A stretch of DNA of 64,000 nt from Parcubacteria group bacterium. Its GTDB lineage: Bacteria > Patescibacteriota > Minisyncoccia > Phycocordibacterales > UBA2135. Position numbers and translations under genes: made by a program. Shown piece after piece: positions 5,501 through 37,077 of this stretch (position 1 is the stretch's first letter; every line of letters starts with the position of its first letter). The notes below the pieces were generated by a model. That model had not been told where the DNA came from and searched no databases. It was given only the letters and a program-made list of their open reading frames with translations. The stretch lies in NCBI GenBank assembly GCA_016204045.1, contig JACQLQ010000004.1:24981-88980 (forward strand), given 5' to 3'.

Positions 5501-7844
5501 TGTTGAAGATGTTGCGGATGATACGACACCGTTTGTGATTGCAAGTAATGGACAAGTCGGAGTAGGAACGACGACAATGACATCTAATATGGAGCTTGTC
5601 ATCCACGGAGATGGTCAAGACGCGAACATCCAACTAGGAAGAAGCAGCGGTGCCCTGTTTGATATTAGGGCAGGACAAGTGACCGAAGGAGTACTTTTCG
5701 CGCTGACCGGGGGCACGGGCAATATGGACTTTTATCACGGAAGTACGATGAATGTACGGTTTGCCAACAGTGGTAATGTTTTCTTCGGCGATTCTTCAAA
5801 TGCCAACATGACGCAGGGGCTTACGATTAACCAAGCTGGAGCCGATAACCAGGCACTTGCCTTTAAATCTTCTGACGTCTCTCACGGCATAACGTCTCTT
5901 GTCGAGCTAGATACCTATGGCGCTCTTGATAAGGCAAGTGGAGACGACGGGGGTATCGAAATCACCGGTTATTCAGAGGATACAGCCGCCTATGCTATCT
6001 ACCTTACGGGGTATGCAGGTACAGCGAACACTGCAAAATCTACGTCTGCTGTAGCACCCACTGTCGTGTATTCTGGAAAAAGAAGCGGCACCTCTGTTGC
6101 TTCCGTAGGTACTGATGGAAACCTGCTGGTAATTCAGGATGTTGGTAGTACCGAATGGCTCGTTGATGCTGAAGGCGATACTTGGCAGAGCGGGGGAGCC
6201 GGGTTTGCCACCTCAACTGCGTGGGGACTTGTCTCAATCGAAAACACCGGATCCGGACCCTCGTTCGTTGTTTCTGACCAGGCGAATGATACGAGTTCAT
6301 TTGTGATTAATACGGATGGAAAAGTCGGAATTGGAACAAACAACCCGTCGTATCCTCTTCACGCAAGCTCGTCTGCCACTGTCGCTGCGCAATTTAACGT
6401 TACCGACGGTACTACGCCTCAAACGGGGACAATTCTCCTCACAACTACTGAAGCGAGAACCGCTGGCCAAGGGGTCTCTATTTCCTTTAATACGCCGACA
6501 ACGGCACCTTCCTTTGAGGACTCTTCAGCAATAGGCGGCCTTGCAGAGGACTCCGTTACTGGGAATCGAGGGGGTTATCTCTCATTTTGGACAAGACCAA
6601 GTGGCGACACACTTCAAGAGCGGCTTCGTATCACAAGCGCAGGCGACGTTTGTGACGTTGGAGGAGTTGATGCCGACTTTACTGACTGCGCCTCTGATAG
6701 TGCTTTCAAGGAAGATATCGTCGGGTACGAATACGGATTGGAAGAACTCCTTGAGCTACGTCCCGTTGAGTTTAGTTGGAATGCGTTAGCACAAAGCAAG
6801 GGATATAAGGGCGGTGTGCGCGTCAACGGTTTTATCGCTCAGGAAGTGGAGACGGTCTTGCCATCCTGGATTAGCACTAACATAGAAGACGGTGGGTACA
6901 AAAAGATTGACGGTGCGGGGGATCTTCCACTTCTGCTCACCAAATCAGTTCAGGAAATTGCCGCCCGTATTAGTCTCACCTCCGCCCCCACCACAACCCC
7001 CTCCCTCTACATCGACTCGGAAGGTCGCCTCGGGGTGGGCACCACAACCCCCGCCTATACCCTCCATGTCATAGGAGATGTGGCGGCAGAAAGTTTTGTA
7101 AACATTTCAACCAAAGAGGCGAAAAAGGACATTTCGTACCTGGGGCATCTCCAGAAAGAATCGCTCTATGAAAAACTCAAAGACTTGGGGGTTGCAACAT
7201 ACTACTACGAACACGAAGATGCAAGCGATGACCCCGAACGTCTTGGGTTGATTGCTGAAGAAGCGCCTGAAGAGGTACTCGCAAAAGGGGGCAAGGGTGT
7301 AGACCTCTATAAACTTGTTACCGCTCTTCTAGCGGCATTCCAGACGCTTGCAGAGAAGGTGGAGAAGCTTGAAGATGCGGCCGTCACCGGTGTTGCGGCA
7401 GTAACTAATTCCTTTAGCGAATTATTCGCGAGCAAGTTGACCATAACCAACCTCTTGTGCTTGGGAGACACCTGTATCGGCGAATCGGAACTGCAGTCAC
7501 TCCTCACTAATGCGGGGTTAATCGCGACATCAACAACTCCAGTAGTTGAAACCCCAGACGATGAAGAAGCGCCCGATACTGAAGCGCCGACGATAACTAT
7601 TACCGGAGCGAACCCCGCGGAAATTGAGCTTAATGCCGCATATTCCGACAATGGTGCGACAGTCGCAGACAACGTAAACGGCAATCTCGGATATACAACA
7701 TACGTTAATGGCATCCTAATGACGCCAGTCCAACTTGATACAGCAACAACAACCACACATCTTATCGATTACGTGGCTACTGACAGCGCGGGAAACACTG
7801 CCACATCAACACGAACAGTGAATATTGTCGCGCCGCAAAATTAG
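2514..7844 (+). CDS. Giant (1776 aa) membrane-anchored surface protein: tail-fibre-like beta-helical repeats, two tandem intramolecular-chaperone (Peptidase_S74-like) domains and a C-terminal Ig-like DUF5011-like domain
   Basis: Single uninterrupted ORF. N-terminal about 230 aa is cytoplasmic. One TM helix (GVVTGFLMVSALGGGVYLL). At least 7 repeats of (V/I)G(I/V)GTxxPxxxLxV. Two copies of the S74 motif (S-D-S-A-F-K-E-D-I ... GFIAQEVETVLP and S-T-K-E-A-K-K-D-I ... LIAEEAPEEV). C-terminus TITITGANP...YVATDSAGNTATSTRTVNIV resembles DUF5011. Confidence 0.8.
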   Translation: MVPMGDELLFEGKKYVSARRLAEGSKYSSDHLSRLARAKKIDGRLIGRNWFINPDSIEVYQQQLNGDHLFKGGEKSFENEQSREADTTQTNSPSTIEPTPNPSEHVQVDTLQNPVIGENAAVTIPITTGVELLSEIPEPLRTESAIELTPPSIETDSWDNLLLGSLKEEENKKDVVTTASPLPTPASVEQPLTKRVADVEVSKETETPSAFEKFRGTGMQILRHASNLPVQAWQASMPFIELGKLAKGVVTGFLMVSALGGGVYLLRDTPYTTYTTLFSNVLVATQGGGERIASVLASGMENATHRITTVGKGSMEIATHPNHFFSRTQEVLAQIIDVVGASATYASDSILRQYHQIHTRISDTKQLTAALLDIPGGVARNLYDTITSLFDGNDATPTTQDKKGTPVTITEKDIEEARRKLLGEESGSTRANPAIAEPTTNTPLRQVQSEITRLQNEVNQLKRSGITIESPVAPKLVERIVERVIPGVTQTNLDDQLNILRGDIASLRNSTTQQTNTIYRTVALSQKIDQLNDVTLTSITVSGVSGLTNADIPDDITVSNYLLLTGGTISGNLQTTGTLTAFEAATIPSFSATSTTNASTINYRLGIGTSSPYAALAVVGETVSTYFTATSTTATSTFSGQAVFNNTPGAPHTFASWATGVAGAQPLVAPLVVNPASAGSDTNLISASVNGAVRFLIDAEGDIYANGIFSTGGTTLSTTTASTFSVENSATLGDATTTDSTYFNSRIGSSLIPTVNNLLDIGDTTNGLAWRTGIFATSLGIGTTSPWGVLSVDAPSTANNITPIFVVADKGTSTPFIYVSGIQGDVGIRTNTPTYALDVAGSIRATSVIDASYFSATSTTATSTIAGFLDITGTNSTSTISGGLDVLGALRLGSSLSLTSTTATTTLAGGLALETTGFVYDFSSNNVGIGTAAPGAQLHLNTASGQNAFRIGSTTDQFIVNNVGNVGVGTTSPGSLFSVDGGGALITNTSSSHSFYVEDVADDTTPFVIASNGQVGVGTTTMTSNMELVIHGDGQDANIQLGRSSGALFDIRAGQVTEGVLFALTGGTGNMDFYHGSTMNVRFANSGNVFFGDSSNANMTQGLTINQAGADNQALAFKSSDVSHGITSLVELDTYGALDKASGDDGGIEITGYSEDTAAYAIYLTGYAGTANTAKSTSAVAPTVVYSGKRSGTSVASVGTDGNLLVIQDVGSTEWLVDAEGDTWQSGGAGFATSTAWGLVSIENTGSGPSFVVSDQANDTSSFVINTDGKVGIGTNNPSYPLHASSSATVAAQFNVTDGTTPQTGTILLTTTEARTAGQGVSISFNTPTTAPSFEDSSAIGGLAEDSVTGNRGGYLSFWTRPSGDTLQERLRITSAGDVCDVGGVDADFTDCASDSAFKEDIVGYEYGLEELLELRPVEFSWNALAQSKGYKGGVRVNGFIAQEVETVLPSWISTNIEDGGYKKIDGAGDLPLLLTKSVQEIAARISLTSAPTTTPSLYIDSEGRLGVGTTTPAYTLHVIGDVAAESFVNISTKEAKKDISYLGHLQKESLYEKLKDLGVATYYYEHEDASDDPERLGLIAEEAPEEVLAKGGKGVDLYKLVTALLAAFQTLAEKVEKLEDAAVTGVAAVTNSFSELFASKLTITNLLCLGDTCIGESELQSLLTNAGLIATSTTPVVETPDDEEAPDTEAPTITITGANPAEIELNAAYSDNGATVADNVNGNLGYTTYVNGILMTPVQLDTATTTTHLIDYVATDSAGNTATSTRTVNIVAPQN

Positions 7845-21583: not shown

Positions 21584-22645
21584 CTAACCAACGAGTGCGA
21601 GTATCACACCCAAAAGGGCGAAGATCGCTCCCAAGACCCAAAAACGCATTACCACCTTATACGGGGGCCATCCAAGCGCTTCAAAATGATGATGGATGGG
21701 GGCCACGCGAAAGATTTTCTTGCCGAAATATTTTTTCGAAATGAGCTGGAGAATATTTGAGCCGGAGGCGAGAAAGAGCGGAAACGCAATGAGAAAGAGC
21801 GGCAACACTGCATCTGTTAAAAACGCGATGACGGTGAGCGTGGTCGTCAGTCCGAGCATTCCCGTTTCTGACATATAGAAGCGCGCTGGCGGAATATTGA
21901 ACCAGAGAAATGCGAGGAGGCCTCCCGCAACAACAGTTGAGAACGCAGCAATATCGATTTGGTTTTGGAAAAAGGCGATCCCTGCAAAAGCTGCAAACAT
22001 GATTGCAAGCACTCCCCCAGCAAGGCCATCAATGCCGTCAATGATGCTCCCCGAGAAAAGTGCGAGCATTACTATCATAAAGAGCGGTATGAAAAGAAGT
22101 CCTAAATACACCTCGCCCAGAAAAGGCACCGCGAGACTTGCAACTCCGAGTTTTGCGAAAAACCACCAACCGCCCAAGGCACCGAGAGTCAGGACAACGG
22201 CAATACGTGTGCGAAGTGGCAATCCCCCACCCATGTGCTTCCCCTTACCTGTCACGACGAGAATGTCATCAACTAAACCAACGAGTGAAGCCGCAATCAA
22301 AGTAAAAAAGGGCAGCCATGTCTGATTACGAGAAAGGAAGTTTAACTTCTCCGCCTCTTCACTAGGAAACACTTCTTTGAGAGACCAGAAGAGAAGTGTG
22401 GTTATAGCGACAGATGCCCAAATCACGATACCCCCCATGCGTGGCACTTTTGTTTCCTGTTGCTGACTCGGGAGTGTGGGTATAATGCGCGCATCTTCCC
22501 CGCTTATAGTCTTGGTCTTTTGATCTTTCCGCCACAGCTTATATTTGTAGAGATAATGTGTAAGGAGTGGTGTTGCGGCAATACCTATAAAAAAAGCCAC
22601 CGCTCCGGGGACCATGACTTTGACAACGTCGAGAGCCTCTATCAT
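21584..22645 (-). CDS. mraY: Phospho-N-acetylmuramoyl-pentapeptide transferase MraY
   Basis: 353 aa. MraY motifs (DDILVVTGKGKHMGGGL, NAxNxxDGxDGL-like SIIDGIDGLAGG, HHHFE). Confidence 0.92.
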   Translation of the reverse strand: MIEALDVVKVMVPGAVAFFIGIAATPLLTHYLYKYKLWRKDQKTKTISGEDARIIPTLPSQQQETKVPRMGGIVIWASVAITTLLFWSLKEVFPSEEAEKLNFLSRNQTWLPFFTLIAASLVGLVDDILVVTGKGKHMGGGLPLRTRIAVVLTLGALGGWWFFAKLGVASLAVPFLGEVYLGLLFIPLFMIVMLALFSGSIIDGIDGLAGGVLAIMFAAFAGIAFFQNQIDIAAFSTVVAGGLLAFLWFNIPPARFYMSETGMLGLTTTLTVIAFLTDAVLPLFLIAFPLFLASGSNILQLISKKYFGKKIFRVAPIHHHFEALGWPPYKVVMRFWVLGAIFALLGVILALVG

Positions 22646-22671
22646 TCACAAACTATAGCATTGACCGTATA

Positions 22672-22727
22672 AACAAAAAAGAGCCCCCGCAGCCTCCGTG
22701 TCGAAGCTTTCGCTCGACACGGAGGCT
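22672..22727 (-). terminator. Intrinsic terminator of the GC-rich 558-aa gene (minus strand)
   Basis: Perfect 14-bp stem AGCCTCCGTGTCGA/TCGACACGGAGGCT, loop AGCTTTCGC. On the minus strand it is followed by GCGGGGGCTCTTTTTTGTTTAT. It sits between the 558-aa gene stop and the mraY start. Confidence 0.7.
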
Positions 22728-22795
22728 TTGGGAAGCCCTGCGCACCAGGTTAAGGTGCCAATCTACGCGGTTACTAAAGTGCTACTAGGGTGCGG

Positions 22796-24472
22796 TTAGG
22801 CGCTGGCGGAGCGAGTCTGCTCGCCGACGTCGTCACCTTCGGTCTCGGTCGCCGCGGCCGCCGCCTGCTGCTGCTTCTCGGTCGCTCCGAGGTTGCAGCG
22901 GAGGAAGAAGCGCGCGGGGTTGTTCACCCCCGAGTACCGCTTGCCGGTCTTGTCGTCCGGATCAAGCTCGTAGAAGGACGACCCGGCGGGGATCTCCGCG
23001 AGGAGCACGGCGTGACACGCTGCCACACCGTGGATGATGATGCGAGGCTTGTTGTCCTCGCCCACCACACGTTCCACCGCCATCGGGACCGTACCCAGCT
23101 TGGCGACCGTGGTCTTCGTCCGCGTACCGTCGCGAACGATCTCACCGTCCTTGTAGACGGGAAGCGTCGGCTCGAACTCCGAGACGACGAGGACCGCGAC
23201 GCCAGTGGCACCACCGTGGAAGTCGGCTGCGGAGATGAGCTTCTTGCCCTTCCCTGCGGCCTTCTTCGCGATGGTGGTCACCTCGGTCAGGGCATGCTCG
23301 GCGGCTTCCCGCTCCGCATTGGCGCGCTCGATCAGGACGCGCTCGTGCTTGAAGGCCCGAGACGCGATCATGAACGCGGCGAACGCCGTGCCCTTGTACG
23401 TGGTGCTCGCCTGCTTCGGCGTCAAGCCGAGGTCGGCGATCGCGACGGTGATGCCCGCTTCCGCGATCTGCGTGATCTTGTTGCGGAAGTAGGAGTTGCC
23501 GTGGCCGGCGACGAAGGTGACCTTGCCGTCGGCTGCGGTGACACGCACCTTGCCGCCGTCGTATTGATCGTCACCAGGGTCGGTGACGACGAGGTCACCT
23601 TCCCCACCCTTGTCCGCGACGCCGATGGCGTTGAGGTTCGGGGTGAGACCCTCGTTCAGGGCATCCAGGCTATCGCGCCAACGCTGGCTCGCTTCGCGAG
23701 CAAGCGCCGAGGCGAGATCGCCCAAGACCTCGAACGGGTTCTTGTACGCCGGCACCGCGACACCCTTGACGACGAGGTCCTTGGGCCACGTCGTCCGCAT
23801 GTCGGCTGCCGTCGCCTTGAACTCCGGCGACATCTCGATCCAGCGGTCGCGCCCGACCTTGACGACACCAACCTTGCGGGTGTTGCCGTCGGTGACCGGA
23901 CGCGCGACGCCGAGCGCAATGGCACGATCGGCGACGTGGCCGAGGTCGAACCAGTTGCTGGGGCACAGGAGGGCGATCGCCGTCACGTACGCGAACTTCG
24001 CGTGCCGCGAGATGACCGGCGCCTCATCGGGAGTGAACTGCCCGAAGGAGGCGTTGAAGCGCCGCTGGAGCGCCGAGTCGGCGTCGAGCTTGTCGCGACG
24101 AGCGCGCAGCATGTCCTTCTCCGTCGCCGTGCCACGAGTCGCGAGCTGGCTCGCGATCGCGAGACGGTCCGAACGCTGGCTCCAGACGATCTGGGCAACG
24201 CTGCCCGGAAGGGCATAGAGGACGGAGTTGAACGTGCTGCTCCGCTCGTCCATCTGCTGACGGCGCGCTTCCTCCGCACCGGTGTCCGGTGCGTCGGTAT
24301 GCGTGCCGCCGAGGTCGGCGTCGAGATCGAACACGAGCTTGTCGGTCGCCGCGGGGGCGCCGGCCTTCTTGGTCTGCTTCACGGACTGCTCCTTGGTGGG
24401 GTTGGTCTTGGCATGCTCCAACGCCTCCGCAAAGGAGGTCGTCGATTGACGGCGAGGAGTGCTCTTACCCAT
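22796..24472 (-). CDS. Hypothetical 558-aa protein, GC-rich (about 68% GC, extreme GC3); no recognisable domain
   Basis: The minus-strand ORF has diverse composition. The overlapping 601-aa plus-strand ORF is R/L/G/V-rich with no stop (antisense shadow typical of high GC3). Plausible RBS GAAGGAAACCCAAG upstream of the ATG. K/T/A-rich N-terminus, segments GHGNSYF and IIIHGVAACHAV. Confidence 0.65.
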   Translation of the reverse strand: MGKSTPRRQSTTSFAEALEHAKTNPTKEQSVKQTKKAGAPAATDKLVFDLDADLGGTHTDAPDTGAEEARRQQMDERSSTFNSVLYALPGSVAQIVWSQRSDRLAIASQLATRGTATEKDMLRARRDKLDADSALQRRFNASFGQFTPDEAPVISRHAKFAYVTAIALLCPSNWFDLGHVADRAIALGVARPVTDGNTRKVGVVKVGRDRWIEMSPEFKATAADMRTTWPKDLVVKGVAVPAYKNPFEVLGDLASALAREASQRWRDSLDALNEGLTPNLNAIGVADKGGEGDLVVTDPGDDQYDGGKVRVTAADGKVTFVAGHGNSYFRNKITQIAEAGITVAIADLGLTPKQASTTYKGTAFAAFMIASRAFKHERVLIERANAEREAAEHALTEVTTIAKKAAGKGKKLISAADFHGGATGVAVLVVSEFEPTLPVYKDGEIVRDGTRTKTTVAKLGTVPMAVERVVGEDNKPRIIIHGVAACHAVLLAEIPAGSSFYELDPDDKTGKRYSGVNNPARFFLRCNLGATEKQQQAAAAATETEGDDVGEQTRSASA

Positions 24473-24600
24473 CTTGGGTTTCCTTCTTCAGTGCTCCTTC
24501 GGAACATCCCACAATGGGATGTCTCGTGGAGCGATAAACATACTCAAGGTTACACGAGACCCTGCCTTCTTAGGGGCAAGGTATCTGTAGTATAGTATAG

Positions 24601-24642
24601 CAAATTAAAAGAGCCCTGTCAAGTGCTACCTTGACAGGGCTC
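24601..24642 (-). terminator. Intrinsic terminator of the beta-CASP gene (minus strand)
   Basis: Perfect 13-bp stem GAGCCCTGTCAAG/CTTGACAGGGCTC, loop TGCTAC. On the minus strand it is followed by TTTTAATTTG. Confidence 0.7.
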
Positions 24643-24749
24643 GGGGGGTGCCGATATGGCCTTATTTCGTCAAGCGAGGACGGCAAGTGGAGACGCTTTA
24701 GGCGGCTCCACTTGCTCCGAGCGAAGACGAAATATAAGACGAAGTGCTT

Positions 24750-26210
24750 TTACACCCCAAGGATAAATAAAGAACCGTTTCGATCCCGCGTGGGTGGGAA
24801 ATGTATTTTTGTCTTCCCATCCGCCGCAAATGACGAGGCATCGGCACCCGAAATATAGCGTTGCACACCACGCTTGTCACCATGGACAAAGACCAAATGT
24901 TGCGGGTTCATGCCCCGCGCAAACTGCTCCAGTTGGTCCGTCTCAGCGTGACCAGACATGCGTTCATCGATAACAGTGGCGTTGATCGGATACCACTGCT
25001 TCCGACGGCTTTTTCTGCCATCGGGTAGCTGGATCGCCTTACTCTCGAGGAATCTGTCCGCCATGGCTTCGCGGAGCAAACCTGCTGGTGTGTCCTCACA
25101 GGCGTAGCCTGACAAGAAAACACCATGTCCCCTTATGGGCAAGAGTAGCTTCATCCACTCAACCGCGGCCCCTTGCCCCATGCCGCCAGTTGCGATGACA
25201 ACACCCGACCAACCGGACTTGAGCAGCTTTTCGCGGTCCGCTTGACCTTGTACACCTTGCACGGTGTGCAGATGCGCGCTGGGGAGGAACCCCCTCGTCA
25301 TCTCGGCGACCTTGATGCCGACTCCGTCCAGGAGGATCTTCTCGGGTGGCATTCCGTTTCTCACCAAATCTTCCACAAACCACTGAACGCGATCGCGGAA
25401 TGAAAGGATGAGCGCTATGCCACCATGGTCGACGATGTTTTCTACTCCGGAGAAAAACTCCTCTTTTGCCTCCTCGCGGCTTTTCCGCGATTTGGCATTA
25501 AGATTTGTCGCCTCAGAGATGAGCATCGTTGTCCGACGCATCTGCAAGAAGAGTGCTGGAGACAAGTGCGGGTTCGGGGTAAATGAAATGTCCCCGGTGT
25601 GGAAGATCGTCTCACCCCAGGCTTCGATGCCCGGCGAAACAGATCCCAATGTGTGCCCGGCGTCTGCCGGCAGCAACTTGATGCCTTCCGCGAGTTGGAT
25701 TTCCCGACGCGGCTTAATGAAATTGATACCGCTTTTGATGCGGGCGATGTGCGCACGGGTGAAGCGTGGCGTATGGTCTGCCCACCCCCTCCCCTGCATA
25801 TCTCGCGCATCTTCTTCCCATAGCATCGCCGCAAATGCGGCTGTTTCTCGTGTCATCAAGATGCGAATGGGCAATCCCGGAAATTCCTGCTCCACTCCGA
25901 GCACAATGAGGATCAGTGCACCGCTGTGGTCAAAGTGTTCGTGTGTGAGCACAATGACAAGTTCAGTCACACCTGAACGCAAGAGCTCATAGAGCCCCTG
26001 CATGTCGGGCAAACTCTTGTCATAGTGCTCGGGGTCACGCGACGTTCGAGGGTCGCGCCCCGCATCAATCATGACGGCTATCTTTTGCCGTCCACTTTGG
26101 AGCAAAATCACGTGGCAGCTTGCGCCAATTTTCTGCGCGCCACCAAGGAAAGCAACACTAATACTTCGAGACATCCGTAATGCCTTTCGTCGCTTCGTGT
26201 GAAAGACCAA
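24750..26210 (-). CDS. Metallo-beta-lactamase fold hydrolase of the beta-CASP (RNase J/CPSF-like) family
   Basis: 486 aa. MBL motif 2 VLTHEHFDHSGA, downstream His/Asp motifs, and beta-CASP-like motifs B/C (ERMSGHAETDQ..., HLVFVHGD). Confidence 0.65.
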   Translation of the reverse strand: MVFHTKRRKALRMSRSISVAFLGGAQKIGASCHVILLQSGRQKIAVMIDAGRDPRTSRDPEHYDKSLPDMQGLYELLRSGVTELVIVLTHEHFDHSGALILIVLGVEQEFPGLPIRILMTRETAAFAAMLWEEDARDMQGRGWADHTPRFTRAHIARIKSGINFIKPRREIQLAEGIKLLPADAGHTLGSVSPGIEAWGETIFHTGDISFTPNPHLSPALFLQMRRTTMLISEATNLNAKSRKSREEAKEEFFSGVENIVDHGGIALILSFRDRVQWFVEDLVRNGMPPEKILLDGVGIKVAEMTRGFLPSAHLHTVQGVQGQADREKLLKSGWSGVVIATGGMGQGAAVEWMKLLLPIRGHGVFLSGYACEDTPAGLLREAMADRFLESKAIQLPDGRKSRRKQWYPINATVIDERMSGHAETDQLEQFARGMNPQHLVFVHGDKRGVQRYISGADASSFAADGKTKIHFPPTRDRNGSLFILGV

Positions 26211-26281
26211 GAGTCTTACTCAAGTATACTACTATAAAATAAAGAAAAAGTCAAATCGACTACGTTTTGGGCTGTATATGC

Positions 26282-26319
26282 AAAAACCCTCCGCTGCGCG
26301 TGGAACGCACAGCAGAGGG
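26282..26319 (-). terminator. Intrinsic terminator of the 202-aa gene (minus strand)
   Basis: 14-bp stem (CCCTCCGCTGCGCG/CGCACAGCAGAGGG, two positions G-U in the minus-strand RNA), loop TGGAA. On the minus strand it is followed by TTTTTGCATATAC. Confidence 0.6.
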
Positions 26320-26334
26320 TGTGGCACAAAGTGC

Positions 26335-26943
26335 CTAGACAGAAGTTGGGGCCTGACAGGCCGTGAGGAAAGGGCCATCCGTAAGGACGATCGTGTGACG
26401 CGGCGGCTTCTTCTTTGCCGCATCGCTGTAGCCGCGCGTGTCGATGAGCTCGACGGTGTCAGCGCGCGGCGGCGGGTTGTCATACACGTGGCAGAACTGC
26501 CAGGTGCTTGCCGCCCGCTCAGCGAAGCTTCGCTTTGCGAGCTCAATGTTGGCGAGCATCTCCGCATGCTCCTTCGGTGTCGCCTGAGCCAACCTGTGGT
26601 CGAGCGCGGCTTGCCGCTCGAATGCGAAGTTGGCGACGTACTGCGTGCCCGACGCACGGTCGAGCGACAGACCATGGACACCTGCCAGCACGAAGTCGAG
26701 GGACGCCAGTTGGCCGAGGATCTCCGGCGACACGGCGACAGACGGCAGGTTGTCGATGACCTTCACCCCCGGACGAACACCCTGCTGCGCTTGGCGCGCT
26801 TGCATGGCACCGTTCAGAGGACGCTCGACCAACGGCGCCCCAACGGGTATGACCGACGCGTTCGGGCTGTTGAACTTGAACAGGATGACCCGCGAAACGG
26901 ACCCCCCACTAAGCTCGACTCCACCAATGGTCTTTGTGGCCAT
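26335..26943 (-). CDS. Hypothetical 202-aa protein, GC-rich; start trimmed to ATG with strong SD
   Basis: The ORF-track start (alternative start codon) adds MFYGRRNP. The internal ATG (MATKTIGG...) is preceded by GGAAGGAGAAACCCG (AAGGAG SD, 9-nt spacing). A full-length antisense plus-strand ORF indicates high GC3. Confidence 0.55.
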   Translation of the reverse strand: MATKTIGGVELSGGSVSRVILFKFNSPNASVIPVGAPLVERPLNGAMQARQAQQGVRPGVKVIDNLPSVAVSPEILGQLASLDFVLAGVHGLSLDRASGTQYVANFAFERQAALDHRLAQATPKEHAEMLANIELAKRSFAERAASTWQFCHVYDNPPPRADTVELIDTRGYSDAAKKKPPRHTIVLTDGPFLTACQAPTSV

Positions 26944-26984
26944 CGGGTTTCTCCTTCCGTAAAACAAGGTTCAGATACAAGTGA

Positions 26985-27012
26985 ATTTTATCATATTATA
27001 GACAAAAGTCAA
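26985..27012 (-). promoter_or_regulatory. Promoter-like site for the 202-aa gene: TTGACT-16 nt-TAAAAT (minus strand)
   Basis: Minus-strand sequence TTGACTTTTGTCTATAATATGATAAAAT lies about 40 nt upstream of the SD/ATG. It is near-identical over about 28 nt to the promoter of the native 194-aa gene at 36984..37011. Confidence 0.45.
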
Positions 27013-27041
27013 GCCCCCGGTCGCACGAAGCGGCCGGGGGC
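27013..27041 (-). terminator. Terminator-like hairpin after the NYN gene (minus strand)
   Basis: 12-bp stem GCCCCCGGTCGC/GCGGCCGGGGGC (one mismatch), loop ACGAA. On the minus strand it is followed by TTGACTTTTGTC (a moderately T-rich run that is also the -35 of the next promoter). Confidence 0.45.
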
Positions 27042-27067
27042 ATAATTATGAAAATATAATCAGTTTT

Positions 27068-28321
27068 CTACAGTGTCTGTGCGAGCTGTCCCGAAGAATC
27101 TGTCGGGGAACTCCCAAATATCTGCATGCGTTTCTTCGCCTCGTACGTCACGACGGGGAGGCCGTCGAGGAATGTCACTTCCGAGTGTTTCTTCCATTGG
27201 GCACTAAGTGCAGTTTCCCAGGAGAGAATCCATGGACGTACTCGGATGTTGATCAACCCAGCGAGTTCCTTTACGCGGTTAATTGCGTGAAGAAAATCAA
27301 TATCACCGGTGATGAGTGCGAGTATAAGCTCTTCGCCCTCCACCATCTCACCCATCTGTCTTACGGAGTGGTATACAATGTCCGCGGCCATCAAGGGGTC
27401 GGTGTCAGACTTTTCGTGGAAAATGATCTGGAAACTCCCCCGCGCGGCACTACCCCGCATATTCTTCTGCGCCGCAAAATTCTTCACGAGGCGCGGACTC
27501 GAATATACATACGCCCAACCACCAGCAAGAGAGAGCGGCTCATTCCCCGAAGGTCCGAGACAAACACGATGCATGAGCCCCGCCCAATCTACATCACGCA
27601 ATTCAACAAGGCGCTCTTTGGCGGCCGGGCCCGTAATTGGTTCGACGCGCTCACCGCTAAACTTGCGATTCTTTGCGATAAGCGCCTCGCTTTCTCCGCC
27701 CCTTCTCCGACCAGTCAGATTTGCCGCGTCGACAAAGACGAGTACGCGAGGACGCATCTTCCTCACTGGCGGAGTTTTGTCAGCTGGCGACACTCCCGCG
27801 CCGTGAGCGACAATCTTGCCCCACTCTGCCGCATGCTTCGCGCGCGCGGTAGCCGGTACGACTGCTGCCGGTGCCGATTTGGTTGCACGAGGCAGAAGCG
27901 GTGTTGCTGGCGAACTTGCCCCAGTCTCACTCTCGCCACCCTCTTTCGGAAGCGGTTTCCCATCCCTGCGAAAGATTCGAAACTTCCGCTCCGCTCTGAC
28001 TCCTGCACCACTTGGTGGCGTGGGGGTAGGAGGAGAAGCTACGGCGGTAAGCGGAGTTACGATCTCCTCTGGCCGCTTGATGAAGTGTATTGACTCAATC
28101 GACTTCCCTCTGCCACGGAATTCGAATACGGGCTTTAGCCACTGACATGCGGCTGCCTTATCAATATAGTGACGCCAATTGTTGGGCACATGAAGATATG
28201 CCCGGAAGAGCGTACGACCATCCCCAGCGGCCGTCGCTTTCTCATAAAGATGGCGGTAGACGATCGCGAGATTCTCTTCTGCGGCGCCTGCTCCCCGCTT
28301 CAAAACGGGCCTTGCTGACAT
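27068..28321 (-). CDS. NYN-domain (LabA/MARF1-like PIN-fold nuclease) protein with N-terminal domain and Pro/Ala-rich linker
   Basis: 417 aa. The C-terminal half has NYN signatures: VLVFVDAANL near the domain start and LILALITGDIDFLHAINRVKELAGLINIRV (GD.DF...G, the equivalent of the SgDsDF motif). Residues about 95-190 are low-complexity P/A/T-rich. Confidence 0.6.
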   Translation of the reverse strand: MSARPVLKRGAGAAEENLAIVYRHLYEKATAAGDGRTLFRAYLHVPNNWRHYIDKAAACQWLKPVFEFRGRGKSIESIHFIKRPEEIVTPLTAVASPPTPTPPSGAGVRAERKFRIFRRDGKPLPKEGGESETGASSPATPLLPRATKSAPAAVVPATARAKHAAEWGKIVAHGAGVSPADKTPPVRKMRPRVLVFVDAANLTGRRRGGESEALIAKNRKFSGERVEPITGPAAKERLVELRDVDWAGLMHRVCLGPSGNEPLSLAGGWAYVYSSPRLVKNFAAQKNMRGSAARGSFQIIFHEKSDTDPLMAADIVYHSVRQMGEMVEGEELILALITGDIDFLHAINRVKELAGLINIRVRPWILSWETALSAQWKKHSEVTFLDGLPVVTYEAKKRMQIFGSSPTDSSGQLAQTL

Positions 28322-28368
28322 TGGGCGGCCTCACTTTCTTGTTTAGGTTCGGCTAGGGTTCTTTCGCG

Positions 28369-28396
28369 ATTATGACAGATTTAGCTTATTAGTCAA
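28369..28396 (-). promoter_or_regulatory. Promoter-like site for the NYN gene: TTGACT-16 nt-CATAAT (minus strand)
   Basis: Minus-strand TTGACTAATAAGCTAAATCTGTCATAAT lies 45 nt upstream of the ATG at 28321 and immediately after the dacA-like stop at 28416. Confidence 0.4.
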
Positions 28397-28415
28397 CCTC
28401 GTTATTTGATGCCCC

Positions 28416-29345
28416 TTATTGAGCGCTGATTTCTTCTAGTGTCGCCCAGACGAGTTTCTCCACATCAGAAAAGCGTCCCTCTTCGGTCCCCCCTAAGACA
28501 ACGACGGCGATTGGACGCGTTGGCCCCGCCTCAAACACCACAGCAAGATTACCTCCCGCAAGATCGGTGAACCCTGTTTTGGATGCAATGATCGCGGGGA
28601 GTGTTTCTATCGTCTTGTGGGTATTTTCCACATTATGCACTTTGTTATCGAGCGAGATGAATGTCCGTCTCGCGTACGGAGTCGCTTCGAAAATACTTGG
28701 GTGCTCCCGAAGTGCATACGAAAGGAGGAGCGCGAAGTCGCGCGCAGAGCCATACGCGCCGCTCAACCCCGCCGATACATCAAGTCCGGAAGGATTTATG
28801 AAAAATGTTTGCGTCATACGGAGCGCTCGCGCCTTTTCATTCATAAGGGTACGCATACTGCCCCCTTCTCCTTCTAATTCTCCTGGCGGAAGAGCCCCGA
28901 AGGTCGCCGCGGCCCCGAGTGCAGCCGCCCCATCATTGGAAGAAGTTACAAGCGTGAGGCCGATCAAATCTTTTGCCCGCCAACGCTCGCCTACCAGAAG
29001 CCCGCTATCGCCTTCTTCCGCCACGGCGTCTTTGCCAACAACAATCTCTGCATCTTTCTGCAGAGCCTCTTCTGCCAAGAGCGCCGTCATCACCTTTGTG
29101 AGCGATGCAAGCGACAACTGTGCTTCGGGATTCTTTTCGAAAAGTGGTTTCTCTAGAGCAATGTCCCACACCATAGCTGACCGAGCAGAGAGTTGAAGTC
29201 CTTCGTATGGAGAACCAAGGACGTCCGTCTCTGTACCTTTGCTCACTTCTCGAGGAGCTCCCAAAAACAACGCAGACACGAGAAAGACGAATAGCAGAGC
29301 CGCTGCTACCCATACTAGGTTGTGAATTGTGTATCGAGCTTCCAT
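28416..29345 (-). CDS. dacA: D-alanyl-D-alanine carboxypeptidase (S11 family, PBP5/6-like)
   Basis: 309 aa. Signal/TM, SxxK (SLASLTKVMT), SxN (SSND), KTG (KTGFT). Confidence 0.8.
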   Translation of the reverse strand: MEARYTIHNLVWVAAALLFVFLVSALFLGAPREVSKGTETDVLGSPYEGLQLSARSAMVWDIALEKPLFEKNPEAQLSLASLTKVMTALLAEEALQKDAEIVVGKDAVAEEGDSGLLVGERWRAKDLIGLTLVTSSNDGAAALGAAATFGALPPGELEGEGGSMRTLMNEKARALRMTQTFFINPSGLDVSAGLSGAYGSARDFALLLSYALREHPSIFEATPYARRTFISLDNKVHNVENTHKTIETLPAIIASKTGFTDLAGGNLAVVFEAGPTRPIAVVVLGGTEEGRFSDVEKLVWATLEEISAQ

Positions 29346-29933: not shown

Positions 29934-30686
29934 TCAGAGGTATTTGGGAGTTGCCACATCTCCACTTTCCATTGCTATATCTTCAAAATGCTTATCCTGT
30001 CGCACTGTAATAATACCACGCTTCACAAGCTCTAACATTGCGAGAAAGCTCACGACGATACCAATTGTATCTTTTTTATCACGCGCGAACTCCTTGAAAC
30101 TGATAGCAAGCGCTCCTCGAATGCGCCCCGCCAAATCGTCCATCATCTCCTCGAGCGAAATGACCTTGCGTACCATGATTTGGGGAATATCACTAATCTT
30201 TGGCAATCGCTTAAGTACATTCATTACGGTGGACAACAGGTTCGGCGCCGTAAGTTCGCCCGTTGGCGCAAAGACCGGAATTATATCCTTCGAGGGTTCA
30301 CGATAATAGACGATTGCCGCACCATATCGTTCGCGCACTATGGGGACAAGGTCACGCATTCGCTTGAGAAGGCGTAGGCGTTCTTCAAGGTTCTCGATGT
30401 TCTCCTCCTCTTCTTCTGTGAGAGTAAGCGCCGGAAGCAGTGCCCGCGACTTGATGAGAACCAGCGTCGAGGCGACAAGAATGAAATCGGCCGCTTCTCG
30501 TGTTGGAAATTCGGGAAGTGATTCAATGTACGAGATATAGTCGTCGGTAATCTCGGCAAGCGACACATCGCTTATGTGGAGTTTCCGCTCTTGGATAAGT
30601 GTCAAAAGAAGGTCCAGTGGGCCTTCAAATGTACGCGTCTTTACCTTGTATCCTTGCCCTTCCTGACTACTCATGGAATCAATCAC
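29934..30686 (-). CDS. scpA: Segregation and condensation protein A
   Basis: 250 aa kleisin. N-terminal FEGPLDLLLTLIQERKLHISDVSLAEITDDY. Confidence 0.85.
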   Translation of the reverse strand: MIDSMSSQEGQGYKVKTRTFEGPLDLLLTLIQERKLHISDVSLAEITDDYISYIESLPEFPTREAADFILVASTLVLIKSRALLPALTLTEEEEENIENLEERLRLLKRMRDLVPIVRERYGAAIVYYREPSKDIIPVFAPTGELTAPNLLSTVMNVLKRLPKISDIPQIMVRKVISLEEMMDDLAGRIRGALAISFKEFARDKKDTIGIVVSFLAMLELVKRGIITVRQDKHFEDIAMESGDVATPKYL

Positions 30687-32077
30687 TTCTTCTTTTTAAT
30701 GGAGATACCAAGCTCATCTAACTGCTTTTGAGCAACGTCGGAAGGGGCGCTCATCATAAGATCCCTCCCCTCTCCTGTCTTCGGGAATGCGATTACTTCG
30801 CGAATGTTGGGTTCGTTTTGGAGCACCATAATAAAGCGATCGATACCTGGGGCTATGCCACCATGGGGCGGCACTCCACGCCGAAATGCCTCGAGCATGT
30901 GCGCAAACTCTTTTTGTTGTCGTTCGTCAAAGCCAATGAGCTTAAAGATCTTTTGCTGAAGATCGGAATTGTGAATGCGGATACTGCCACCCCCGACTTC
31001 GTAGCCGTTCAGAACCATGTCGTGTTGGTAAGAGCGCACAGAGCCCGGGTCCGTATCGAGTTTTCCTAAGTCTTCCTCCTTTGGGGCTGTGAACATGTGA
31101 TGGCTTGGCGCAAAGTGACCATTCTCAAGGGTGGGCTCGAAAAGCGGAAAATCAAGTACCCACACAAAAGCCAGAAGATCGGGGTCTTCTTTGTTCTCGC
31201 GAATATCCGGTCGGTCGGTTCCGTACTTCTTCATTGCCTCCTCATAGCTCATGCGCGGCCACGGGGTTTGCTGCATGCGTTTCTTCGGGTAGAGCTCCTG
31301 CACAATTGAGGTGTAAAGCTCCTCTGTTAGATTCAAAATCTCCTCCTGTGTTGGAAATGCCATCTCAATATCAAGCTGGGTGAATTCGGCTTGCCTGTCG
31401 CCACGCATGTCTTCATCGCGAAATACGCGGGCAACCTGAAAGTACCGCTCAAAGCCGGAGGCCATGAGAAGTTGTTTGTATTGCTGGGGTGATTGCGGCA
31501 AGGCGTAGAACTTACCTTGGTCCAACCGCGAGGGCACGATGTAGTCTCTCGCTCCTTCGGGGGTCGACTTCGTCAAAATAGGAGTCTCAATCTCCACAAA
31601 ACCTCGTTGCCCTAAAAAGGCGCGCATGTACTGTATGACCTTGTCACGCATGCGCATGTTTTTCTGGAGACGCGCTCGGCGCAAATCGAGATAACGATAT
31701 TTGAGACGAGTCTCTTCGCTCACCTCATACCCTGGAGTTCCAAGGTCAAAGAGTGGTGTTTCGGCGCTGTTCAATACCTCGAGGGCTGTGAACTCGAGCT
31801 CTATGTCGCCGTTGTCTTGCTCGGCGTTCACCATCTTTTCGGGGCGTTTGTTGACCATCGCCTTTCCTTTGATGACCCATTCCTGCCGTAGTGTGTCTGC
31901 TATGTGGTGCGCGGTTTCGTGTGTGGGTTTCGCAACGGTTTGCACCAGTCCTGTCTCATCACGAAGATCGAGGAAGATGAGCTTCCCGTGGTCGCGGCGA
32001 CCTGAAATCCACCCCGCAACAGTAACCTCTTTGCCGACGTGTGAGTGTAAATCCTTAATGTAAGTACGAGATACCAT
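30683..32077 (-). CDS. aspS: Aspartate--tRNA ligase, short form lacking the GAD insertion domain
   Basis: 464 aa. OB-fold N-domain. Class II motifs incl. QSPQQYKQLLMASGFERYFQVARVFRDED and GGGSIRIH. Length about 125 aa shorter than typical bacterial AspRS. Confidence 0.9.
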   Translation of the reverse strand: MVSRTYIKDLHSHVGKEVTVAGWISGRRDHGKLIFLDLRDETGLVQTVAKPTHETAHHIADTLRQEWVIKGKAMVNKRPEKMVNAEQDNGDIELEFTALEVLNSAETPLFDLGTPGYEVSEETRLKYRYLDLRRARLQKNMRMRDKVIQYMRAFLGQRGFVEIETPILTKSTPEGARDYIVPSRLDQGKFYALPQSPQQYKQLLMASGFERYFQVARVFRDEDMRGDRQAEFTQLDIEMAFPTQEEILNLTEELYTSIVQELYPKKRMQQTPWPRMSYEEAMKKYGTDRPDIRENKEDPDLLAFVWVLDFPLFEPTLENGHFAPSHHMFTAPKEEDLGKLDTDPGSVRSYQHDMVLNGYEVGGGSIRIHNSDLQQKIFKLIGFDERQQKEFAHMLEAFRRGVPPHGGIAPGIDRFIMVLQNEPNIREVIAFPKTGEGRDLMMSAPSDVAQKQLDELGISIKKKK

Positions 32078-35465: not shown

Positions 35466-36224
35466 TTACGTAATATCTAGCGCATCAACACGTGCCCGCT
35501 CGAGTACCTCTTCGGCCGCTTGGCTAAAAAGCAACTCGACTGCCTTAGTCTCACGCTTCATGTCTTCTGCAACGACGATAGAATCCTCAGACGGATGCAC
35601 TGCGCGAGCCAGATCTTCATCGATCTCGAGGTGTGATGGCCCATCGTGGTGCGCAATGTGCAACTCCCCCCAGGCAAACTGACCGTCGAGCTGTTCCGTG
35701 AATGGACGCGAACCACAGAGAAAGGCGGAGAGCTCTTCCGCGATGTATTCGGTTGCGGCAAGCGCACAGAAGAACTTGAAAGGATCGTCTGTATACGCCT
35801 TATCGATAAGCGCCTGAATGCAATGCACTCTCTCTCGAGCCACCCCGAGTGTGGTCAGATTGAGCCCCATCTTGGAAGCATCGTCATGCCATGTGCGAGC
35901 GTGCTCACCCTCTTCTTCGTGCATCTGACGAAGGACGTGAGCGGCGGAAACAAAGTACTGTTGTGCAATCTCGGTGCTAAAGCGGCCCTTGAGAAGCCTA
36001 CGGAGGGGCAGCCTCTTCGACTGCGCATCAATTGCTTTCTCAAATTCGTACACAAACGGCCAGAAGCCAACGAGGAGCGCCCGCATGGCTGTCGGGCTGC
36101 CTCTGCCACAATTCGCGATGAGTGTCGAACCCTCGACAAGACCGCGAGCAAAGCCACGAAGAAATCCTCGATCAACAATAGGATTGGGATAGAGCAACCA
36201 ATGCTTTCCCGCCGGTTTCGTCAT
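35466..36224 (-). CDS. Heme-oxygenase-like fold (TenA/PqqC/CADD-like) iron-containing redox enzyme family protein
   Basis: Start set at the ATG (MTKPAGKHW...) preceded by GGAGGAACTCTG (strong SD). The ORF-track start is a TTG 43 codons upstream. The helical protein carries conserved E/H residues (EYIAEELSAF, ELHIAHHDG). The family assignment is tentative. Confidence 0.45.
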   Translation of the reverse strand: MTKPAGKHWLLYPNPIVDRGFLRGFARGLVEGSTLIANCGRGSPTAMRALLVGFWPFVYEFEKAIDAQSKRLPLRRLLKGRFSTEIAQQYFVSAAHVLRQMHEEEGEHARTWHDDASKMGLNLTTLGVARERVHCIQALIDKAYTDDPFKFFCALAATEYIAEELSAFLCGSRPFTEQLDGQFAWGELHIAHHDGPSHLEIDEDLARAVHPSEDSIVVAEDMKRETKAVELLFSQAAEEVLERARVDALDIT

Positions 36225-36315
36225 CAGAGTTCCTCCACGTACCAGAACTGATCCTAGAGTAATATATGAAAAGGTCTGTGTCAAACTCAAAGGTTGGTCT
36301 GTACAATTAAAAAAT

Positions 36316-36341
36316 GAAGCCGCCGGTTTCCCAGCGGCTTC
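36316..36341 (-). terminator. Intrinsic terminator after the 194-aa gene (minus strand)
   Basis: 8-bp stem GAAGCCGC/GCGGCTTC. On the minus strand it is followed by ATTTTTTAATTG. Confidence 0.6.
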
Positions 36342-36364
36342 GATACAACGCAACGTCTCGACTG

Positions 36365-36949
36365 TCAGCTTGCCGCCGAGGTGGTCTGCCCCTTGAATGC
36401 GGCGGCCTCGTCCTGGACTTGCATCTGCTCATACTCGCTCGCAAGCCCGCCAGCACCGAGGTCGTGCACAACGCGGTTGACGATCCGCTCCCAGTTCGAG
36501 TCGAGCGGAATGTCGTACAACCATGCGCGATACTGCCGCACCTCATTGCCTTGGAGACCAGTGACCACGCTCGGATCAAGGTAACTCGCCTCACCCTTCC
36601 TGAAGAGCTTCAATTCCCCCAACTCGGGAATCGTCGCCTCGATGGTGTTGCCGTCTAAGAAGGGTTGACCTTCGAAGAAGGTGATCACAATCGGATCTGG
36701 GGTCTGTCGAACCCATTCGCTCTGCGGGGTCTTTTTCTCCGCCACCCAGATGACTTCGATGATGTTCTCCCTGCCCTCGCGACGAACCCCCTTCACAGGT
36801 CCACGGAGGACACTGCCGTCCCTACGCATGACTTGGACGTCACCGAATTTCATCTGGGGGTTATTCCCACGCGAGACGACGTCAAACCACGTTATTTGTG
36901 CCCTCATCCTGTTCCTCCAACAAGGTACTTTTCTGCGGCAGGATGCCAC
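36365..36949 (-). CDS. Hypothetical protein (194 aa by ORF track, GTG start; ATG at codon 15 is the likely start)
   Basis: No recognisable domain. Strong upstream promoter TTGACT-16-TATAAT. Confidence 0.45.
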   Translation of the reverse strand: MASCRRKVPCWRNRMRAQITWFDVVSRGNNPQMKFGDVQVMRRDGSVLRGPVKGVRREGRENIIEVIWVAEKKTPQSEWVRQTPDPIVITFFEGQPFLDGNTIEATIPELGELKLFRKGEASYLDPSVVTGLQGNEVRQYRAWLYDIPLDSNWERIVNRVVHDLGAGGLASEYEQMQVQDEAAAFKGQTTSAAS

Positions 36950-36983
36950 AGAAGGTATCGGCCCTTAAGCCGATTATGACTGG

Positions 36984-37011
36984 ATTATATCATAAATAGA
37001 CAAAAAGTCAA
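36984..37011 (-). promoter_or_regulatory. Promoter TTGACT-16 nt-TATAAT for the 194-aa gene (minus strand)
   Basis: Minus-strand TTGACTTTTTGTCTATTTATGATATAAT lies about 35 nt upstream of the ORF start. It closely resembles the island promoter at 26985..27012. Confidence 0.5.
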
Positions 37012-37017
37012 TAATTA

Positions 37018-37043
37018 ACACAGCCGCCCTTAGGCGGCTGTGT
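37018..37043 (-). terminator. Intrinsic terminator of dnaJ (minus strand)
   Basis: 11-bp stem ACACAGCCGCC/GGCGGCTGTGT, loop CTTA. On the minus strand it is followed by TAATTATTGACTTTTTG. Confidence 0.65.
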
Positions 37044-37077
37044 TGGAAACAACAATATTAAAAATTTGGAAGTTGCT

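Follow-up and report, generated by a model that had tools for sequence, protein, structure and literature searches.

Long-term, gene-limited GC3 extremes in two orphan genes beside two ribonuclease-family genes at the dacA-mraY junction of Parcubacteria

Closest described systems and the dacA-mraY locus

Atypical GC content is a standard flag of recent gene transfer, and foreign composition is expected to decay towards that of the host; in the model of Lawrence and Ochman, compositionally atypical genomic islands reportedly ameliorate. Here, we analyzed a block of four genes, designated D, C, B and A, located between dacA and mraY in a stretch of 64,000 nucleotides (contig JACQLQ010000004.1, referred to below as the window) from a metagenome-assembled genome (MAG) of Parcubacteria, members of the candidate phyla radiation (CPR). 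An earlier note on this DNA had taken the block for a horizontally acquired GC-rich cassette and had considered that the host might be an epibiotic small-genome bacterium; a small-genome host agrees with the assignment to Parcubacteria. Similar to classical genomic islands, the block is a discrete insertion with atypical genes and an empty site in outgroups. In contrast to such islands, it shows no amelioration, only two of its four genes are atypical, and neither a donor nor mobility machinery nor patchiness within the clade was found. What is unusual in this element is the long-term, gene-limited and extreme GC content at third codon positions (GC3) of two orphan genes, A and C, which lie beside two ribonuclease (RNase)-family genes, B and D. 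Our literature searches uncovered neither this four-gene set nor CPR genes that remain GC3 outliers over time, and the set matches no described defense or RNA-processing system.

Several other systems resemble individual features of the locus. CPSF73, aCPSF1 (FttA) and Integrator-11 share with B a metallo-beta-lactamase core, a beta-CASP insert and an RMMBL C-terminal motif, but aCPSF1/FttA has two N-terminal KH domains, which are absent in B, and the relatives closest to B outside the clade described below share only 22-25% identity with it. The NYN (PIN-like) nucleases of PF01936 (LabA-like, Rae1/YacP, MARF1 and PRORP) share the acidic motifs FxDxxN, D and GDxDF with D, although all matches of D were below the gathering threshold of this family, and D of the window lineage has in addition an N-terminal domain and a long Pro/Ala linker. 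With regard to messages, mRNAs that lack ACA escape MazF. A and C are likewise depleted of potential endonuclease targets and are located beside nuclease genes, but this is an analogy of mechanism only: there is no MazF-type toxin here, the avoidance concerns A/U-rich words in general with no defined motif, and the link to the nucleases is hypothetical. S-layer genes are highly expressed and fast-evolving, and have strong promoters, long stabilizing 5' leaders and strong terminators. Gene A is likewise monocistronic and fast-diverging, with a near-consensus promoter, a leader of ~110 nt, and a strong Shine-Dalgarno sequence and terminator; however, its product has no signal peptide, transmembrane segment, SLH or other anchoring domain.

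The region at 22650-28400 has a GC content of 58.7%, compared with 49.5% in the rest of the window, and open reading frames (ORFs) confirmed the four genes described in the earlier note, all on the minus strand and arranged in the order dacA-D-C-B-A-mraY. The region is not the uniformly GC-rich island that had been proposed. Against a GC3 reference of 39 other window genes (0.519 +/- 0.038), A (0.862, z +9.0) and C (0.773, z +6.7) were outliers, whereas B was marginal (0.614, z +2.5) and D was at background (0.562, z +1.1), its GC excess being at second codon positions (GC2 0.66) of a Pro/Ala-rich linker and not at GC3. In A, GC at the first, second and third codon positions was 0.65, 0.49 and 0.86, respectively. 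In the 5' leader of A and in the spacers between genes, GC drops back to ~0.45-0.52, so that the anomaly is a property of the A and C coding sequences alone, and it ends where the ORFs end. Sharp edges had been described at both ends of the region. The one on the mraY side was found (0.455 to 0.645 over 200 nt, at ~22.7 kb), but no comparable jump marks the dacA end, where D has 0.562 GC and dacA 0.533. Antisense stop-free ORFs extend over all four genes, including one of 601 aa over A, and had been taken to indicate very high GC3; this holds for A and C but not for B and D. The frame over A, a codon-aligned shadow frame, owes its openness to the absence of TTA, CTA and TCA codons, and stops interrupt it in three related loci introduced below (L003, L004 and L015).

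Relatives and age of the insertion

Word-indexed searches of 5.8 billion proteins returned the window's own proteins and one sister homolog each for A and D, and a full HMMER scan of 1.84 billion cluster representatives with an A profile returned two more proteins, P0006 and P0007. The relatives of A from protein searches therefore comprise A itself (its product is identical to NCBI protein HY455_02685; an exact-sequence look-up of window A gave no record) and three others, P0002 (60-62% identity), P0006 (27%) and P0007 (22-24%). Outside the clade of carriers defined below, no homolog of A was detected in either set, and none of C or D among the 5.8 billion proteins; no source was thus seen for the high-GC, for example actinobacterial, donor suggested in the earlier note. 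A genome-collection scan with B detected, outside the clade, beta-CASP proteins of unrelated phyla that were 22-29% identical and did not have D, C and A as neighbors, and the sister MAG was the only carrier beyond these distant proteins. In IMG/VR, no viral relatives of A or D were present, and B matched only 22%-identical beta-CASP proteins.

The same gene order, dacA-D-C-B-A-mraY, was found in the sister MAG (L001). Between it and the window, housekeeping proteins are 85-90% identical and synonymous divergence (dS) is saturated (1.8-3), and the block proteins are 75% (B), 61% (A), 55% (D) and 47% (C) identical. The ratio of nonsynonymous to synonymous divergence (dN/dS) is ~0.04 for housekeeping genes, ~0.1 for B, ~0.2 for D and ~0.5 for both A and C. 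A distant relative on a Rifle scaffold (L004), whose mraY is 64% identical to that of the window, has dacA-D'-C'-B'-A'-mraY, with identities to the window of 23% (D'), 29% (C'; range 29-34%), 31% (B') and 24% (A'). In another locus (L003), an A homolog is followed by mraY. The co-occurrence of the four genes as neighbors, a check proposed in the earlier note, was thus observed in both L001 and L004. As the D-C-B-A arrangement recurs in independent assemblies (NCBI, ENA, JGI and Logan), a chimera of assembly is excluded.

An mraY-anchored scan of metagenome contigs yielded 80 loci at 51-66% identity, of which 64 show both genes. Of these, 54 have dacA abutting or overlapping mraY, which supports the view that the block was inserted between formerly adjoining genes. 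The remaining ten contain unrelated inserts of 0.7-3.5 kb (radical SAM and DoxX, a Kelch-repeat protein, orphan ORFs) with ordinary GC3, and A, C and D were undetected in these loci. In other Parcubacteria lineages, too, the dacA-mraY junction has repeatedly taken up inserts. In a neighbor-joining tree of mraY, the window, L001, L003, L004, L015 and L017 form one clade, and these six loci are exactly those that have a GC-rich gene upstream of mraY. In L015 this gene is an ORF of at least 502 aa directly upstream of mraY (L015:2-1510, plus strand), with a GC3 of 0.78 (0.40 in mraY) and an acidic C-terminal tail; in L017 only its GC-rich 3' end is seen, which encodes a Lys/Ala-rich tail and is followed by a terminator.

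We also considered a mobile element and rejected it: the window contains no tRNA, no significant direct or inverted flanking repeats and no att-like repeats, and no integrase or transposase domain was found by Pfam in the four block proteins. The simplest history is one insertion in the ancestor of the clade, followed by vertical descent, and it is very likely that the block is such an ancient, vertically inherited insertion. Its presence at the equivalent site in the sister MAG and in the distant relative, together with the GC-rich gene upstream of mraY in 6 of 6 clade members, speaks against a recent horizontal acquisition; the four genes are syntenic in relatives, within this clade.

The composition of the two orphans has persisted over the same period. 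GC3 of A is 0.86 in the window, 0.84 in L001, 0.83 in L003 and 0.88 in L004, against genome backgrounds of 0.43-0.52 (~0.43-0.46 in L003 and L004); GC3 of C is 0.77 in the window, 0.77 in L001 and 0.65 in L004; and B and D are near background in all carriers. Given that synonymous sites have reached saturation between carriers, a foreign signature would have been expected to decay, and the steady GC3 of A therefore indicates that its composition is actively maintained and is not a relic. Moreover, a GC3 of ~0.85 was kept while the A protein diverged to 22-27% identity, so that something besides ancestry must hold the composition, gene by gene. This observation also calls for caution: compositional islands should not be read as recent horizontal gene transfer before relatives have been checked.

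Proteins and transcription units of the block

The earlier note had predicted a beta-CASP metallo-beta-lactamase RNase-like gene, and B corresponds to it. Its scores exceed the Pfam cut-offs for RMMBL (35.9 bits, cut-off 21.6) and Lactamase_B (34.8 bits, cut-off 22.7), and it has 15.8 bits with the Beta-Casp model (cut-off 27.7). Metallo-beta-lactamase motifs 1-4 are present (IDAG, THEHFDHSG, AGHTLGS and HTGD). Residues H77, H79, D81, H82, H173 and D194, as well as those of beta-CASP motifs A, B and C (E220 in SEAT, H408 in SGHA and H430 in VHGD), are invariant in three orthologs. The best matches among PDB sequences were CPSF73, PH1404, Integrator-11 and FttA (~1e-16 to 1e-13). In NCBIfam, B matched the aCPSF1 model TIGR03675 with an E-value of 1e-30 and 106.5 bits (cut-off 580.2); residues 8-297 of the query aligned to profile positions 166-441, and B begins at the metallo-beta-lactamase domain. 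Its motifs place B, as a new and catalytically intact member, among the beta-CASP metallo-beta-lactamase RNases. Three narrower assignments were rejected. An aCPSF1/FttA equivalog was ruled out by the missing KH domains and the score far below the cut-off, and RNase J by scores of 22.5 against a cut-off of 400 (TIGR00649) and 15.2 against 820 (RNase J1, NF047419). Cas14 of Type VII CRISPR systems scored 63.1 bits against 800 (NF045584, E=1.6e-17); the neighbors of B are D, C and A, and no tandem or spaced repeats and no CRISPR array are present in the window.

D consists of an N-terminal domain of ~95 aa, a Pro/Ala-rich linker of ~100 aa and an NYN-like domain at residues 196-380. Full-length D of the window had no Pfam match at E <= 0.1, and its C-terminal half aligned to positions 2-116 of the 145 in the NYN profile PF01936 with 13.1 bits (E=0.14). 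The L001 ortholog reached 24.0 bits (E=6e-5) and the L004 ortholog 15.0 bits (E=0.037), the gathering cut-off being 24.2. The residues F196-x-D198-x-x-N201, D314 and G339-D340-x-D342-F343 are invariant in three orthologs that are only 25-54% identical. Single-sequence and profile searches of D against PDB sequences gave only noise, and NCBIfam, PHROGs and PADLOC gave no match. D is probably a divergent NYN-domain protein with a putative nuclease activity. Two predicted RNA nucleases had been noted in the block: this holds for B with its intact beta-CASP motifs, whereas D is a plausible candidate whose best ortholog score was just short of the cut-off. The D' protein of L004 (L004:5394-6050, 218 aa) is the NYN-like domain alone, to which the window and L001 add the N-terminal domain and linker; judging from this comparison, the N-terminal module of D was gained or lost within the clade.

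As the earlier note had stated, the other two products have no recognizable family: A and C had no match in Pfam, NCBIfam, PADLOC, PHROGs or, by single-sequence search, PDB sequences. A is a soluble alpha/beta protein with disordered charged tails, a near-neutral pI and three Cys, and its AlphaFold2 (AF2) model (mean confidence, pLDDT, of 62) gave no fold match. In the sense frame of A, substitutions were most frequent at third, then first, then second codon positions. C has a conserved STWQFCHV motif. No signal peptide or transmembrane segment was predicted in A, C or D; the N-terminus of A is polar/charged, a strongly hydrophobic 19-mer is lacking, and Pfam gave neither an SLH nor any other domain, C-terminal secretion signals of the Type I style being outside the reach of the tools used. 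No paralogy was detected among A, C, D and a further orphan gene of the window, X, which is described below. In PADLOC-DB 2.0, no family was found at E <= 0.1 for A, B, C or D, in agreement with the earlier statement that the block is no described defense system.

Each gene has its own promoter-like site and its own terminator (Table 1), as had been noted. In a scanned region of 9 kb, 8 sigma-70-like sites were present on both strands together, compared with 3.7 expected; five were on the minus strand, and four of these five were directly upstream of A, B, C and D. A hairpin terminator is located 3' of each of the four genes in the window as well as in L001 and L004. In the promoter of A, neither TTGACA nor the -10 box varies among the window, L001, L004 and L003, and the -35 box lies inside the 3' arm of the B terminator. 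The same four loci keep a leader of 100-125 nt with an AGGAGG-type Shine-Dalgarno sequence, and the A leader had no Rfam match. The A terminator contains an inverted repeat (I3, 22686-22704 / 22714-22732, 89% complementary), and equivalent hairpins are present in L001, L003, L004, L015 and L017. At the position of the B promoter-like site, 11 of 12 consensus matches were found in both L001 and L004; the C site is kept with 9/12 in L001 and 11/12 in L004; and the hexamers and spacing of the D site are identical in L001. No promoter-like site was found upstream of D' in L004. Taken together, these signals indicate that each gene forms its own, probably strong, transcription unit.

Terminator hairpins overlap or abut the next -35 hexamer (TTGAC) at the B-to-A, D-to-C and dnaJ-to-X junctions, forming compact terminator-promoter cassettes at 24594-24642, 26985-27041 and 36950-37040 (minus strand) of the window. 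The B-to-A overlap is conserved in L001 and L004.

Table 1. Features of the block, its boundaries and dacA-mraY loci with other inserts (window coordinates unless a locus is named)
Feature	Position	Strand	Basis	Remark
mraY	21584..22645	-	Pfam Glycos_transf_4	downstream boundary of insertion
A terminator	22671..22732	-	19-bp hairpin then T-run	directly upstream of mraY
gene A	22796..24472	-	558 aa ORF	soluble orphan
A 5' leader	24473..24587	-	about 110-115 nt	Shine-Dalgarno at end
A promoter	24594..24622	-	TTGACA, 17 nt spacer, TATACT, TG extended -10	11/12 consensus matches
B terminator	24611..24642	-	13-bp stem then TTTTAATTT	kept in L001, L004
gene B	24750..26171	-	473 aa ORF	beta-CASP metallo-beta-lactamase ribonuclease, CPSF73/aCPSF1 type
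B promoter-like site	26226..26254	-		9/12 matches in window
C terminator	26286..26320	-	16-bp stem then T-run	equivalents in L001, L004
gene C	26335..26943	-	202 aa ORF, NCBI call P0005	soluble orphan
C promoter-like site	26985..27012	-	TTGACT, 16 nt spacer, TAAAAT, TG	10/12 matches
hairpin 3' of D	27013..27041	-	GCCCCCGGCCGC...GACCGGGGGC	abuts C -35 box, likewise in L001
gene D	27068..28321	-	417 aa ORF	NYN-like (PIN-like) nuclease domain, C-terminal
D promoter-like site	28369..28396	-	TTGACT, 16 nt spacer, CATAAT, TG	10/12 matches
dacA	28416..29345	-	Pfam Peptidase_S11, synteny	upstream boundary of insertion
loci with unrelated inserts	L045:4508-7994; L075:3813-4875; L040:531-2609; L032, L038, L042, L055, L073, L081, L093

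Maintenance of the composition and its possible causes

The codon usage of A is strongly skewed. Third-position A has a frequency of 0.03, and AAA is used for none of 35 Lys codons. C is preferred over T in 79-95% of codons for five of six two-fold pyrimidine pairs and for Ile, the values for His and Cys being 70% and 67% (3 codons). GGT (33%) and CGT (30%) are kept, as are GGC and CGC, while GGA, AGA, AGG and CGA are absent; these shares of GGT and CGT are above what plain mutational GC pressure gives in high-GC genomes. Runs of [AT]4 are also depleted relative to synonymous permutations, with 1 versus 8.3 expected in A of the window, 1 versus 11.2 in A of L001, and 0 versus 3.9 in C. The words depleted in A and C are only general A/T-rich ones (AAA, AAT, ATT, TAG), with no discrete nuclease-site motif. 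In addition, the predicted folding of A mRNAs is stronger than that of synonymous permutations, by 4-8 kcal/mol per 120 nt, with z-scores of -7.4, -6.9, -9.0 and -4.6 in the four orthologs, compared with +0.9 for mraY, -1.7 for dnaK and -3.2 for ftsW as controls. A structured non-coding RNA under A was considered and rejected: there was no Rfam match, and changed pairs were still paired in 23-26% of cases, no better than in slid controls (18-34%).

These features suggest the following explanation. Four separately transcribed genes were inserted into the tight dacA-mraY junction of the founder of the clade and have been inherited vertically since. B is an RNase-family enzyme and D probably another, both of ordinary composition, and A and C are fast-evolving soluble orphans in which selection on the nucleic acid would keep the sequence GC-rich, almost free of A/T runs and A-ending codons, and tightly folded. 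The selected trait would most likely be a message that is stable or resists endonucleases and therefore yields much product from consensus promoters, and the block may represent a lineage-specific RNA-metabolism module of two nucleases and two abundant partner proteins. We would give this combination of an ancient vertical insertion and mRNA-level selection slightly less than an even chance; the part that attributes the composition to mRNA-level selection for stable, highly expressed messages is the reading we favor, but it is tentative and in itself somewhat unlikely.

Several observations weigh against this explanation. The depletion of A/T runs in A is weak in L004 (6 versus 10.5 expected, p ~0.1) and L003 (16 versus 23.7, p ~0.05). 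The folding excess is not specific to GC3-rich genes: the mRNA of B, whose GC3 is only mildly raised, has a z-score of -6.7 (~6 kcal/mol per 120 nt) and ftsW one of -3.2, and synonymous permutation, by disrupting codon context, makes z-scores more negative. Comparison of the window with L001 showed no conservation of specific base pairs. High expression, and message stability as the selected trait, are deduced from sequence features, and the presumed functional link of the nucleases with A and C has conserved adjacency as its sole basis. With regard to the history of the block, B, C and D are documented in three genomes only, the contigs of L003, L015 and L017 being too short; the mraY neighbor-joining tree uses a single protein and carries no support values; and the L015 counterpart of A has no homology to the A family detectable by hidden Markov model or hhalign, so that it represents either extreme divergence or replacement by a different gene of like composition.

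Other explanations account for part of the data. A recent island from a high-GC donor, such as an actinobacterial host, that retains its foreign composition would fit the GC-rich region between poorer flanks, the codon-position profile of A, which resembles that of a gene from a ~66% GC genome, and the fact that most relatives have the empty site, in which dacA adjoins mraY. But the block occupies one site across saturated dS, down to 64% identity in mraY and 24% in A; its carriers form one clade, with the empty site only outside it; homologs of A, C and D are absent outside this clade in the protein sets searched; B and D are not GC3-anomalous; mobility genes, att repeats and tRNA are lacking; and the GGT and CGT shares of A exceed those expected from mutational pressure. 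This possibility is largely refuted and very improbable. An artifact, whether a chimeric assembly, a product of the antisense ORF or a structured non-coding RNA under A, might be suspected from the 601-aa antisense ORF and the very low folding energy of A mRNA; it is already refuted by the independent assemblies, by the shadow frame being broken in three relatives, by the codon-position order of substitutions in the sense frame, and by the Rfam and base-pair results, and is now barely credible. Ordinary translational selection, with A and C as the most highly expressed genes and GC3 reflecting optimal codons, is unlikely. It agrees with the C-ending preference of A, with the retention of GGT, GGC, CGT and CGC and loss of GGA, AGA, AGG and CGA, and with a conserved, monocistronic arrangement that has a consensus promoter with extended -10, a strong Shine-Dalgarno sequence and strong terminators. 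However, the genes of ribosomal proteins S4 (0.475) and L25 (0.467), of RpoA (0.52) and of DnaK (0.54) in the window are not GC3-rich (0.47-0.54 with GrpE included), GC is raised at first and second positions as well, A/T runs are depleted beyond codon choice, and a dN/dS of ~0.5 is the opposite of that usual for highly expressed genes. In slow-growing CPR bacteria, moreover, codon usage should be under only weak selection.

Two further possibilities concern the biology of the block. GC-biased gene conversion at a recombination hot spot, with A and C as diversifying genes (for example in host interaction), would be consistent with their fast evolution, with increased GC at all three codon positions and with the other inserts that the dacA-mraY junction took in other lineages. 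Yet the anomaly respects ORF limits and leaves the spacers, the A leader and the intervening gene B unaffected, and the gene-conversion effects reported in bacteria are, to our knowledge, much smaller than the GC3 shift of +0.35 to +0.45; we regard this possibility as quite unlikely. A defense or toxin-antitoxin-like cassette, in which the nucleases would be effectors and A and C sensors or immunity proteins, seems similarly improbable to us. Two nuclease-family genes, the fast evolution of A, C and D, the lineage restriction of all members and the weak similarity of B to the Cas14 beta-CASP model (E=1.6e-17) point in this direction, but none of the four proteins has a PADLOC match, the Cas14 score of 63 bits is far from the cut-off of 800 and is not accompanied by a repeat array, stable vertical retention at one site is unlike the patchy turnover of defense islands, B is under strong purifying selection, and the GC3 anomaly would be left unexplained.

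A more specific form of mRNA-level selection couples the nucleases with nuclease-proof messages. Here, B and/or D would degrade A/U-containing cellular or invading RNA during dormancy, stress or phage attack but spare the mRNAs of A and C, which, purged of A-ending codons and A/U runs and tightly folded, would escape and stay translated. Such coupling would explain a long-held, ORF-limited GC bias beside two RNase genes, but we consider it speculative and improbable. In a still bolder variant, an episymbiotic Parcubacterium would deliver A and C into a high-GC host cell, and their composition might be adapted to the translation or RNA-decay machinery found there.

If mRNA-level selection for stability, RNase resistance or strong folding is indeed the cause, the block would be an unusually clean natural example of it, and the two RNases encoded beside A and C would allow a direct test. 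In any case, these genes add clade-specific, apparently indispensable proteins of no recognizable family to CPR bacteria, whose lineage-specific biology is mostly uncharacterized.

A third GC3 outlier of the window is the above-mentioned gene X (36365-36949, minus strand), which is located downstream of dnaJ and encodes an orphan of ~181-194 aa with a GC3 of 0.71 (+5.1 SD). In its upstream region (36950-37077), a near-consensus promoter (TTGACT, 17 nt spacer, TGATATAAT) comes directly after a terminator hairpin. X had no Pfam match and is not a paralog of A or C. This observation suggests that a small class of genes with A-like architecture exists in this genome.

Several other genes of the window deserve mention. 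A 1776-aa ORF at 2514-7844 (plus strand) has no family assignment and an unusually high GC2 (0.49), and three minus-strand ORFs, at 45975-47471 (498 aa), 47605-48801 (398 aa) and 35466-36353 (295 aa), have no Pfam match and ordinary GC3. Near scpA/B, a class II tRNA synthetase of the Asp/Asn/Lys type (30683-32077, minus strand) is only 35% identical to L004:1353-2684, while the corresponding values for the nearby mraY, ftsW and dacA are 53-64%. A second tRNA-synt_2 gene is located at 62177-63640, and the synthetase at 30683-32077 may be non-orthologous or replaced.

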